Virus record (IMG/VR): IMGVR_UViG_3300045988_175650
Location: 1 to 44,119 of that record
DNA length: 44,119 nt
Source of the DNA: a virus
Direction: 5' to 3' (one strand)
Below, one piece after another: positions 41,881 to 43,683 of this stretch (the stretch's first letter is position 1; every line of letters starts with the position of its first letter). Made by a program: the position numbers and the translations under genes. A model generated the notes under the pieces. The model searched no databases. It was not told the DNA's origin and saw only the letters and a list, made by a program, of their open reading frames with translations.

Positions 41881-43683
41881 ATGACGCAACCCCCCGACCA
41901 CCTGCCGCTACCTCTCGCCCGTGGTGGCACAGTATGGCCGTCCGACCGCCTGCCGTTGCCGCTGGGTGGCGGGCAGGCCCCACCGCCGCCCAAACCGAAG
42001 AACGTACCCATCAGCGGCTGCACCCCCGTGCGCACCGCACCCGCCGCCACCGTCGGCACCTGCCTGCGCGTCCACGACCACGGCGCGCGCATCAGCACCT
42101 GCCGACAGCTGCACTACCGTCCGGCGGCGGATATCGGGCGCTGCTGGCGACTGCGCATGGCCCCGCTGCCGTCGCTGGCCGCCTGCACCCGCATCACCCT
42201 GCCCACCGCTGCCCCGGTCGCGCGTTGCTACCGCATCCATAACGCCGCCTTGCCGCTGCTTGGCGGCTGCTACCACGGGCACAACGTGCGCGGCTGGCTG
42301 CTGCGCCGCTGTGTTGCACAACACATCCCCGTCGCCGTGCCACTGCGCGGCTGCCATCGCCTGCGCTACCCCGTCGCGCCGCTGCTCGTCAGTTGCGCCA
42401 CCGTCCACTACTGGGGCAAGGCGCTGCGCAGTTGCCACATCGTGCGCTACCGGCGTGCGGTGCGCCCGCCCTGCGAGTATTACCCCATCCCGCTGCCGCC
42501 ACCGCCGCCCGACCTCTCCCCCTGCCGCATCCGTCCGCCGTCCGACCGGCTGCCGCTACCCTTTGCCCGCCGCCGCATCAACCGCGACAGCGCCCGCCTT
42601 GCCCTGCCGCTTAGATGCTGGCACGACGGCAACACCAACGACCTGCCCATCCTCCCCGGATACATCATGCACAACAAGATTACCGCCGACCTTAACGGCG
42701 AGCCGCTCGACCTGCTTGCCCTGAATCTGACCACCGACACCGCGTCCTACTGCTGGCAGGGCGACATTACCCTCTCGCCCGCCAGCTTTGCCAAGCTCAA
42801 GATTGACCAACGCGCCGCAGGCGACGAGGCCGTCATCACCATCCGCATCAACGGCAACCGTTGGGACATCCTCGCCGAGGACTACCGCGACACCCGCAAA
42901 TTTATCGCCCACAGCTACACGGTGACGGGCCGATCCATCACCGCCAAGCTGGGCGCCGACTACGCCAAGGGCAGACACAGCAAGTACGACGCCGCCCGCT
43001 ACGCGCGACAAATCGCCGACGAGCAGCTCAACCTGCTGCCCTACCGCATCGCCGCTTGGGAGGCGGTGGACTGGCTCATCCCCGGCGACAGCTACACCGT
43101 CTCCGGGCAGACGCCGATTGAGGTCATTGCCGACCTCGCCAAAGCGGCAGGGGGCTTTGTTGAGAGCCACCCCTACGAGGCGCAGCTCTTTGTCCGCCCG
43201 GTGTGGCGGCAACCCGCATGGGGCAAACCCACCCCGGCACTCACCATCCCTGCCAACCTCATCCTCTCCGTGTCTGGCCAGCGCCGCATCAGCGAGCGCT
43301 GCAACGCGGTACGCCTGACGCCTGCGGCCGAGCAAATCGGTGGTGCCAAGGCCAAGGGTGGGCTGGTCTATCGTGAGGGCACCGACCAACAGCCGGAGGC
43401 GTCCACCCTGACCCACGCCGCCTACACCGACACGAGCGTCATGCGCGCCGCGGGCATCCATGCCCTCTCTGAGACTGGCACGCACAAAATCGAAACCGTG
43501 CAACTGCCGTGGGCGGAAAAATACCAGCTGCCGCTGGCAAGCCTCGGCGCGGTGTGGGCATTTGCCGAGGCCGGACAGACCTGGCAGGGCATCATCAAGG
43601 GCGTATCGGTGGCGGTCGAGCTGGACGGCGGCGCGCCGGTGGTTACGCAGACCGTCACCATTGATCGCTATCTGGGAGATTAA
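41881..43683 (+). CDS. Tail protein (600 aa): N-terminal Pro-rich and 12x Cys-periodic repeat region + C-terminal globular tail domain
   Basis: Single open frame. Third-position G+C is very high in this frame across the repeat region, supporting translation. The C-terminal 340 aa look like an ordinary structural protein. Confidence 0.6.
   Translation: MTQPPDHLPLPLARGGTVWPSDRLPLPLGGGQAPPPPKPKNVPISGCTPVRTAPAATVGTCLRVHDHGARISTCRQLHYRPAADIGRCWRLRMAPLPSLAACTRITLPTAAPVARCYRIHNAALPLLGGCYHGHNVRGWLLRRCVAQHIPVAVPLRGCHRLRYPVAPLLVSCATVHYWGKALRSCHIVRYRRAVRPPCEYYPIPLPPPPPDLSPCRIRPPSDRLPLPFARRRINRDSARLALPLRCWHDGNTNDLPILPGYIMHNKITADLNGEPLDLLALNLTTDTASYCWQGDITLSPASFAKLKIDQRAAGDEAVITIRINGNRWDILAEDYRDTRKFIAHSYTVTGRSITAKLGADYAKGRHSKYDAARYARQIADEQLNLLPYRIAAWEAVDWLIPGDSYTVSGQTPIEVIADLAKAAGGFVESHPYEAQLFVRPVWRQPAWGKPTPALTIPANLILSVSGQRRISERCNAVRLTPAAEQIGGAKAKGGLVYREGTDQQPEASTLTHAAYTDTSVMRAAGIHALSETGTHKIETVQLPWAEKYQLPLASLGAVWAFAEAGQTWQGIIKGVSVAVELDGGAPVVTQTVTIDRYLGD

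Follow-up and report, generated by a model that had tools for sequence, protein, structure and literature searches.

A previously undescribed 14-residue repeat domain ahead of the predicted baseplate hub in a Cardiobacterium prophage tail protein

Results

Tail-tip module and layout of the 600-aa protein

The window, that is, the whole stretch of DNA that was analysed, comprises 44,119 nucleotides of IMG/VR virus record IMGVR_UViG_3300045988_175650. Its tail genes run in the order major tail protein, tape measure (31890-36557), 1208 aa, 312 aa, 110 aa, hub (600 aa) and 76 aa. The hub gene lies downstream of the tape measure within the tail-tip module, as expected of gp27/gp44-type hubs. The 1208-aa tail-tip protein contains repeated modules. 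PDB sequence searches with the 1208-aa, 312-aa and 110-aa neighbours gave no match. The features of the locus are as follows.

40611..41549, plus strand: 312-aa neighbour, whose N-terminal part is conserved (residues 10-89, phrog_9600 "tail assembly protein") and whose C-terminal part varies
40875..42375, plus strand: mosaic block that diverges from related Cardiobacterium prophages, from sliding nucleotide identity
41537..41869, plus strand: 110-aa neighbour without family match, always immediately upstream of the hub gene
41881..43683, plus strand: 600-aa tail-tip gene P0001, an N-terminal ladder extension followed by a predicted C-terminal baseplate-hub domain
41890..41964, plus strand: two N-flank motifs, PPDHLPLPL (residues 4-12) and WPSDRLPLPL (residues 19-28), direct repeat family D1
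41974..42018, plus strand: Pro/Lys-rich linker (residues 32-46), with PPKPK kept among close homologues
42019..42471, plus strand: Cys-ladder array of 11 units of 13-14 residues (Cys47 to Cys185), from periodicity, conservation and unit profile
42469..42513, plus strand: highly conserved P-C-E-Y-Y-P-I-P-L-P-P-P-P-P-D segment with Cys198, family consensus PCEYYPIPLPPPPPD
42523..42618, plus strand: Cys215, two C-flank motifs, RPPSDRLPLPF (219-228) and DSARLALPLR (236-245), and Cys246
42667..43680, plus strand: predicted baseplate-hub domain (residues 263-600) of Mu gp44 / T4 gp27 / VgrG fold, from AlphaFold2, Foldseek and BFVD

The Pro-rich D-x-LPLPL motifs that bracket the array were noted before as three; there are four, at residues 4-12, 19-28, 219-228 and about 236-246. 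The LPLxL core of the N-flank motifs is kept in the family consensus.

Periodicity and composition of the array

In the translation of 41881-43683, cysteines occur at residues 47, 61, 74, 88, 102, 116, 130, 144, 158, 172, 185 and 198, giving spacings of 14, 13, 14, 14, 14, 14, 14, 14, 14, 13 and 13, so that the positions and the 13-14-residue period given in the earlier note hold. None of 200,000 shuffled versions of residues 1-262 reached 11 spacings of 13 or 14 in a row, the best of them giving 4, and Fourier analysis placed peaks at 13.8-13.9 residues for both Cys and Arg/His. Cys198, the twelfth ladder cysteine, begins the segment after the array, and two more N-terminal cysteines (215 and 246) lie beyond the ladder.

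Tandem Repeats Finder detected no DNA array of 39-42 nt, and the repeat is apparent at the protein level only. The units are degenerate as DNA, with a mean identity of 46% against 31% expected; the repeat is therefore old and maintained at the protein level, rather than the product of recent DNA duplication. The extension is Pro-rich (16% Pro). Its hydrophobic residues peak at a period of ~7, but a coiled coil was rejected for this protein, whose Pro residues at unit positions 7-11 cannot be accommodated in helices. Transmembrane beta-barrel strands were likewise rejected, the hydrophobic runs being just 4-6 residues long.

Translation and conservation

The array is translated and under constraint. 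Its G+C content at codon positions 1, 2 and 3 (0.70, 0.60 and 0.88) resembles that of adjacent genes, and GC3 in the ORF frame is 0.86-0.88. Among 117 full-length homologues (75-97% identity), all 14 N-terminal cysteines are invariant, with adjacent columns ~80% conserved. Frame, start position, length and all cysteines are conserved over hundreds of homologues, and the N-terminal extension was found in every full-length family member examined. The earlier note had suggested looking for variation in repeat number; the length is fixed, with zero indels and every Cys codon retained even against phages with an array identity of just 28%.

These data bear on the possibility, named in the earlier note as one that would overturn its reading, that the true start is Met263 (nt 42667) and that the upstream frame is a by-product of high G+C. 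This region of 65-69% G+C does have long ORFs in several frames, and a small number of database homologues are annotated as ~333 aa from the equivalent Met. Those short entries proved to be truncated contigs or a gene miscall with the frame open upstream, and the PHROG 6079 profile spans 605 positions. With frame, start, length and every Cys kept at 28% identity and GC3 coding-like, the non-coding or wrong-start reading was rejected on comparative data, and we give it practically no credence.

The family comprises 1,533 clusters (50% identity, E<=1e-3) from phages of Cardiobacterium, Pseudomonas, Ralstonia, Stenotrophomonas, Acinetobacter and marine bacteria. Searches of Pfam (E<=0.01), NCBIfam (E<=1) and the PDB (phmmer and profile) gave no match for the protein or the array, and Cys-type and Trp-type proteins searched against Pfam/NCBIfam repeat models at E<=1 returned nothing besides noise, in agreement with the earlier impression that the array belongs to no known repeat family. 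In the literature, we found no description of a cysteine ladder in tails, of N-terminally extended hubs or of phage RS138.

Unit profile and the Cys and Trp ladders

Each repeat keeps just two positions, namely position 1 (Cys, or Trp in a distant clade) and position 12 (Leu/Val/Ile/Phe). Across 60 distant representatives, 57% of units have Cys at position 1 and the others Asp, Ser, Ala or Glu; position 12 is hydrophobic in 86%. Weaker alternating hydrophobics occur at positions 2/4/6 and 9/10, with small or turn residues at 7-8 and 13-14. Loss of rung cysteines and variability both rise toward the N-terminus; Cys198 is retained in 50 of the 60 representatives, and Cys215 and Cys246 in 57 of 60 each.

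The C-x-(R/H)-hydrophobic-(H/R) pattern first noticed in this array is real in this phage lineage but does not extend far beyond it, since the Arg/His residues at unit positions 3 and 5 are gone in Cardiobacterium phage relatives of 76% overall identity. The pattern is lineage-specific and accompanies the Arg/Pro-rich composition of a G+C-rich gene.

The distant clade carries a Trp ladder with the same period. Ralstonia phage RS138 gp52, Pseudomonas phage Lodos and their relatives (PHROG 6079) belong to the same family and also place a ladder of 14-residue units, ~250 residues in all, before the hub, but with Trp at the rung position, where P0001 has Cys, and with other flank motifs. The phrog_6079 "tail protein" profile matches P0001 with E 1.6e-69 but aligns only from residue 203 on (residues 203-596 against profile positions 215-602 of 605), and hhalign of the Cys-type against the Trp-type N-terminal profile found no similarity. 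The two arrays are thus equated on their position, their period and the existence of intermediates, namely the ladders of P0132, P0134 and P0137, in which Cys and Trp are mixed. The type of rung tracks the hub phylogeny. Many family members, for example P0127, P0139 and P0169, are without every second rung or most rungs.

The hub domain and predicted structure of the array

Residues 263-600 were modelled by AlphaFold2 with pLDDT >90. Foldseek against the PDB matched this region to 3d37, 9ki1_G, 1wru, 3cdd, 1k28 and VgrG/Tal (E 9e-19 to 1e-10, probability 1.00, TM-score on target 0.57-0.74), in keeping with a hub fold of two tube-like beta-barrel domains, and the BFVD match was COG4379 Mu gpP. 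By its predicted fold, this region is a baseplate hub of the Mu gp44 / T4 gp27 / VgrG type and the ladder is its N-terminal extension, which makes the earlier assignment of the array to a tail-tip protein more specific. By analogy, the 600-aa protein would be a trimer that closes the tail tube. The fold is common to gp27/gp44-type hubs (1wru, 9ki1, 3cdd, 3d37, T4 gp27, the VgrG N-terminal module and the Tal N-terminal domain), among which 1wru and 9ki1 are Mu gp44, 3cdd is the MuSo2 43-kDa tail protein and 3d37 is a Neisseria prophage tail protein. To our knowledge, the gp27-like module of known hubs is N-terminal and any extension (fibre, lysin or spike) is C-terminal, whereas here a repeat extension of ~260 residues precedes the module.

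AlphaFold2 monomers left the ladder at pLDDT <50 for both the Cys-type (90-sequence alignment) and the Trp-type (61-sequence alignment) protein. The low-confidence Cys-type model has isolated beta bridges at residues 105, 119, 133, 147 and 162, one per unit, which is a weak hint of structure; the Trp-type model, also of low confidence, has helices at residues 122-133 and 151-170. The solenoid or fibre proposed earlier for the array stays our best guess, one that AlphaFold2 did not confirm.

Evolutionary rate and module exchange

In the array dN/dS is 0.9-1.35, against 0.12-0.16 in the hub, with dS saturated, and a value near 1 under saturation is also compatible with relaxed constraint instead of exposure. 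Sliding nucleotide identity to related prophages is 27-65% inside the block at 40875..42375, and 70-84% and 84-95% on its left and right flanks, respectively. The 312-aa neighbour is divergent in all three mosaic comparisons, and over its residues 3-129 it shares 32-36% identity with relatives that match the hub at 91-96%; the 110-aa neighbour has 47-49% identity to relatives L003 and L007. In L016, the 312-aa and 110-aa genes and hub residues 1-40 are swapped and the array is 97-99% identical. In L015, the mid-array differs and the 110-aa protein is 87-91% identical. On these alignments, the array is a separately exchangeable, fast-evolving module within a variable tail-tip region.

Discussion

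We propose that the 600-aa protein serves a siphophage-type prophage of Cardiobacterium as its baseplate hub, in trimeric form. In front of the hub domain, the first ~260 residues comprise, in order, two short D-x-L-P-L-x-L strand motifs, a linker rich in Pro, the 14-residue repeats (11-12 of them), a poly-Pro segment and a further two D-x-L-P-L-x-F motifs. Each unit may fold into two short beta strands plus turns, and the units may stack into a stalk of fixed length (a beta-solenoid, beta-prism or fibre). The Cys/Trp and aliphatic residues would provide a buried spine, most likely complete only in the hub trimer, while the other unit residues would face outward and be free to vary. Such a stalk is likely to be exposed, either contacting the host surface or presenting the variable 312-aa neighbour. 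As the N-terminal flank motifs are exchanged along with the 312-aa and 110-aa proteins, they probably serve to dock these two. That the ladder is a beta-rich stalk dependent on the trimer, with a spine of Cys and aliphatic residues, an exposed and variable surface and a structural rather than a metal-binding role, seems to us about evenly poised between right and wrong. Against it, Trp and Cys are very unequal in size, so that a shared buried position is not self-evident, and the complete invariance of 14 cysteines in the Cardiobacterium clade is more than a buried small residue needs.

Several known proteins invite comparison. [quoted passage not shown] The array shares with it the idea of a regular ladder of potential ligands along a trimeric fibre; however, the His/Arg residues of the array are not conserved, its Cys is interchangeable with Trp and it lacks a ligand pair conserved in every repeat. 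The Tenebrio antifreeze protein is built of 12-residue coils, each with two Cys that form intra-coil disulfides. Both have very short coils (12-14 residues) that carry Cys at a set position, but the array has one Cys per 13-14-residue unit, in a phage protein that is assembled in the cytoplasm, and no sequence or fold match to the antifreeze type was found. The fold-switching beta-prism/coiled-coil segment of lambda J-type proteins and the F7 pyocin resembles the proposed stalk in being repetitive, trimer-dependent and attached to the hub at the tail tip; each of its strands has small residues and a single buried aliphatic position, and methods that model one chain predict it poorly or ambiguously. 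That central-fibre segment is C-terminal to the hub and has high coiled-coil propensity with the pattern SxSxxMxxLxS, and the F7 pyocin preprint (PMC12874032) describes large segments of tail-tip proteins that refold. The array differs in being N-terminal, Pro-rich and built on Cys/Trp, and hhalign of its N-terminal profile against lambda J gave a probability of 0.1%, that is, no similarity.

One rival to a purely structural stalk starts from the cysteines themselves, whose codons are retained across 72% residue turnover while adjacent residues change. In the Cys clade, the thiols could form inter-chain disulfide staples after release into an oxidising environment, three Cys per level could bind metal at the three-fold axis, or Cys198, Cys215, Cys246 and Cys291 could bind a cluster as in lambda gpL. 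It fits such a chemical role that four further Cys by the hub boundary are 83-95% conserved in this clade, that no gpL-like Fe-S protein was found among the scanned genes of the phage, and that the substitutes at rungs of distant Cys-type members are often Asp, Ser, Glu or His, which are possible ligands too. However, the His/Arg partners are lost even in close Cardiobacterium phage relatives, rungs are missing from many members, a C3 trimer has an odd number of thiols per level so that not all can pair, and PDB sequence and profile searches gave no similarity to solved metal-binding chains. Trp takes the same period and shares ladders with Cys, and the Arg/His pattern is lineage-specific, all of which speaks against an obligatory metal ladder, and the metal-binding role first suggested for the array is weakened by relatives with Trp, Asp, Ser or Ala at the rung in the same period. 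We regard a chemical role as doubtful on balance, though one to be taken seriously. A bolder form of it, which strikes us as distinctly improbable, has the 12-14 thiols per chain of the Cys clade (36-42 per trimer) forming a redox- or metal-dependent spine along the axis or edges of the stalk, derived from a Trp-packed ancestor by TGG-to-TGC changes, that locks the tip by oxidation or metal after release and is unlocked at the cell surface. If true, this thiol/metal spine would equip a non-contractile tail with a chemically gated trigger.

Two further readings dispense with a self-standing stalk. The extension might have no globular fold of its own and run as an arm over the 1208-aa, 312-aa or 110-aa protein, with Cys/Trp and Leu as anchors in repeated pockets. 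AlphaFold2 leaves the region unstructured in two independent branches of the family, the Pro content is high, and the flanking D-x-LPLPL motifs resemble short strand-addition motifs, the N-terminal pair swapping with the 312-aa and 110-aa genes. Co-adapted docking nonetheless predicts linked exchange, and the array is exchanged independently of the 110-aa and 1208-aa genes; the strict unit length without indels and the alternating hydrophobics also suit a folded repeat better, and we consider the arm unlikely. We hold it to be very unlikely that the extension lies in the lumen of the hub or tube with the C-terminus of the tape measure and is expelled at infection to plug, open or line a channel in the envelope, even though the hub closes the tube and related machines have the tape measure and plug elements inside (Mu structure, PMC11915804; F7 pyocin, PMC12874032). 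The extension has no hydrophobic helix or long amphipathic strand, its unit having two hydrophobic stretches of 4-6 residues. Internal phage proteins are usually conserved, and the array is the fastest-evolving, mosaic part of the gene, which disfavours an internal location.

Baseplate hubs are among the best-studied parts of phage tails, and their extensions are normally C-terminal. The present comparisons point to a large hub family with a fixed-length N-terminal repeat domain that is in no database and that an AlphaFold2 monomer cannot fold. The full switch between Trp and Cys ladders would show how a repeat scaffold can replace its key residue. As the fastest-evolving, separately exchangeable part of the tail tip, the array is a candidate host-contact determinant, which would concern temperate phages that infect an oral bacterium and several laboratory hosts that are well studied.

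A periodic cysteine array ahead of a baseplate-hub domain

The ORF at 41881-43683 (plus strand) encodes a 600-residue protein, here the hub protein, with cysteines at residues 47, 61, 74, 88, 102, 116, 130, 144, 158, 172, 185 and 198, and also at 215 and 246. All of the first eleven Cys-to-Cys distances are 13 or 14 residues. A run of this length arose in 0 of 200,000 shuffles of residues 1-262 (longest shuffled run, 4), and Fourier analysis gave a peak at 13.8-13.9 residues for Cys and likewise for Arg/His. Two copies of a D-x-LPLPL motif precede the array and two lie behind it. 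Taken together with the third-codon-position GC of this frame (0.86-0.88, the same as in adjacent tail genes), these results confirm the periodic cysteines and flanking Pro-rich motifs described in the earlier note. At the DNA level, the array units share 46% mutual identity versus 31% expected from composition; no 39-42 nt array was reported there by Tandem Repeats Finder.

Residues 203-596 correspond to PHROG 6079 ("tail protein", 605 positions) at E 1.6e-69. The protein has no match among Pfam or NCBIfam models, nor among PDB chains by sequence or by profile. AlphaFold2, supplied with a 90-sequence alignment, returned pLDDT >90 at residues 263-600 and <50 at residues 1-200. Foldseek identified the confident part of the model as a baseplate-hub fold, with matches that include 3d37, a tail protein of a Neisseria prophage (E 9e-19), as well as Mu gp44 (9ki1_G, 1wru), the MuSo2 43-kDa protein (3cdd), T4 gp27, VgrG and the baseplate of phage 80alpha; the BFVD match was "COG4379 Mu-like prophage tail protein gpP". 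Judged from this model, the ladder is an N-terminal extension of a baseplate hub, whereas known hubs, to our knowledge, bear their extensions at the C-terminus.

Translation of the array

A word-indexed search returned 256 homologues at E<=0.001, of which the best 120, each at least 74% identical, include one protein named from Cardiobacterium hominis. In the 117 full-length sequences among these 120, each of the 14 N-terminal Cys columns shows 100% conservation and 20-residue windows of the array are 79-89% conserved. Four related IMG/VR prophage loci have hub domains 91-96% identical to that of the window and arrays (residues 47-171) only 28% identical, with zero indels and every Cys codon retained. 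The start of the protein and its first motif (M-x-x-P-D-x-L-P-L-P-L) are conserved. A few database entries of ~333 aa do begin at the equivalent of Met263, the start that the earlier note had named as evidence against translation, and these proved to be contig-end cases (L008, which lies 56 nt from the contig end and whose frame continues open upstream; L010, 262 nt from the end) or a gene-calling error (L009, since its stop-to-stop frame spans 625 codons and includes a Cys ladder). The array is translated, as the earlier note had argued from codon composition, and we regard a non-coding repeat as practically excluded by the GC bias, the Cys columns, the lack of indels and the conserved start.

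Long ORFs also overlap the array in other frames and on the minus strand (window 41351-42740), including:

41908-42438, minus strand, overlapping ORF of 176 aa
41921-42724, plus strand, overlapping ORF of 267 aa

Translated, these ORFs give low-complexity strings of Ala, Arg and Pro, and in related loci the second forward frame of the array region is interrupted by stops. The ORFs are probably side effects of the high G+C content.

Cysteine and tryptophan ladders across the family

When 50%-identity representatives were searched exhaustively, a family of 1,533 proteins emerged at E<=1e-3, nearly all full-length members of which have an N-terminal region of 200-300 residues. Nearer members carry Cys ladders with as many as 12 rungs, a rung being the conserved residue that opens each unit. 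Farther members (Pseudomonas, Ralstonia and marine phages) carry Trp ladders that reach 11 rungs and share the 14-residue period. Cys and Trp occur together in single ladders of P0132, P0134 and P0137, and some proteins lack every second rung. In the hub-domain tree, a Trp clade (support 1.0) is distinct from the Cys side, and mixed forms branch close to where the two meet. By profile comparison, Cys-type and Trp-type arrays retain no similarity in sequence, so that position, period and the mixed intermediates are the grounds for treating them as equivalent. Trp-type hubs (alignment A3) open with two Y-R-K-P / P-Y-R-K-x-x-T-Y-R-G motifs rather than D-x-LPLPL, and some (P0284, P0290, P0292) have an extra copy inserted mid-array.

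A unit profile was compiled from seven units in 60 distant Cys-type representatives. Cys occupies position 1 in 57%, with Asp/Ser/Ala/Glu in the remainder; position 12 is Leu/Val/Ile/Phe/Tyr in 86%; positions 2, 4, 6, 9 and 10 are hydrophobic in 36-49%; positions 7-8 are mostly Ser/Gly/Ala/Pro and positions 13-14 mostly Asn/Gly/Ser. In the same representatives, rung occupancy climbs toward the hub: it is 20-50% for rungs 47-74 and reaches 80-95% for rungs 185-246. Array variability among close homologues declines in that direction. Near the extension/hub boundary, Cys198, 215, 246 and 291 (42472-42474, 42523-42525, 42616-42618 and 42751-42753) are 83-95% conserved in the Cys clade, which exceeds the conservation of the ladder rungs, and may make up a disulfide or cluster site of their own; the Trp clade has Trp at the equivalents of Cys198 and Cys215.

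Gene neighbourhood and mosaic exchange

The hub gene is second to last in a tail module ordered major tail protein, tape measure, 1208-aa, 312-aa, 110-aa, hub and 76-aa protein. The prophage ends in the 3' fragment of a tRNA-like sequence at 44065-44111 (GGTTCGAGTCC...CCA), which is probably the attachment site; ARAGORN called no full tRNA at the window end, and the same ~50 nt match unrelated phage records. The tail-tip module of the window is the last before this site, unlike in L010, L015 and L016, where the hub and 76-aa genes are followed by holin, SLT lysozyme and LysC and then by Mu-type head genes (Phage_Mu_Gp27, Portal_Mu); the module is therefore joined elsewhere to Mu-like head modules. 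One protein of the representative library, P0151 (693 aa), combines an N-terminus like that of the 1208-aa protein with the hub C-terminal domain; it represents a genuine fusion or deletion variant, or else a chimera created during assembly.

Related prophages share only the first ~130 residues of the 312-aa protein (40611-41549), the part that matches phrog_9600 ("tail assembly protein"). In each comparison, another sequence takes the place of its C-terminal part, which is how a receptor-binding protein would be expected to vary. No family match was obtained for the 110-aa protein (41537-41869), which is always present directly before the hub in Cys-type relatives.

Comparison of the window with L003-L007 gave dN/dS of 0.9-1.35 for the array and 0.12-0.16 for the hub; within the L group, the values were 0.34-0.54 and 0.10-0.19. 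Sliding identity delimited a divergent block at 40,875-42,375, extending over the last two thirds of the 312-aa gene, the 110-aa gene and the beginning of the hub gene up to and including most of the array. Two further relatives split this block. In L016, 40,650-42,000 is swapped (42-62% identity), a stretch that includes both upstream genes (312 aa and 110 aa) as well as hub residues 1-40, where the first two motifs lie, and the array is 97-99% identical from 42,000 on. In L015, identity across the 110-aa gene is 87-91%, and differences fall in two separate patches, 40,950-41,400 and 42,150-42,300 (mid-array). Hence, these sequence comparisons show that the array is an independent module and that the motifs at the N-terminus move with the two upstream genes.

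Discussion

AlphaFold2 gave no confident model of either ladder type, producing isolated beta bridges, one per unit, for the Cys type and two low-confidence helices for the Trp type (P0219, 61-sequence alignment). The strict unit length, the two conserved inward-type positions, the alternating hydrophobic pattern with two short stretches per unit, the Pro at unit positions 7-11 of the window protein, and the failure of single-chain prediction, given that the other half of the protein would, by analogy with known hubs, be an obligate trimer, all point to a folded repeat that needs a trimer or partner to form. Trimeric tail-tip segments of lambda-type central fibres and the F7 pyocin are likewise predicted ambiguously by single-chain methods (PMC12874032), although they differ from the ladder in position and sequence pattern and share no profile similarity with it.

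The reading we favor, with a confidence that is evenly balanced, is a trimer-dependent, beta-rich stalk on the hub. Its spine would consist of the rung residue, Cys or Trp, together with the aliphatic residue at position 12, its surface would vary within an exposed, exchangeable part of the tail tip, and the flanking motifs would serve as docking strands for neighboring proteins. The earlier note had envisaged a metal-binding or disulfide-stapled structure built on a C-x-R-h-H pattern. That pattern is not conserved: its Arg and His are already gone in Cardiobacterium phage relatives of 76% identity. A chemical role for the thiols, as disulfide staples or metal sites, would suit the absolute invariance of Cys within the clade and the four additional conserved Cys close to the domain boundary, but the interchange of Trp and Cys, the unconserved His/Arg and the relatives poor in rungs make it rather improbable. 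It is unlikely that the ladder is instead an extended docking arm, and very unlikely that it is a lumen-resident or ejected element.

Conclusions

The hub fold is already known, and the family is otherwise listed only as an unannotated PHROG. Neither the 14-residue N-terminal ladder domain, nor its Cys and Trp forms, nor its modular exchange was found in Pfam, NCBIfam, PDB or the literature searched.
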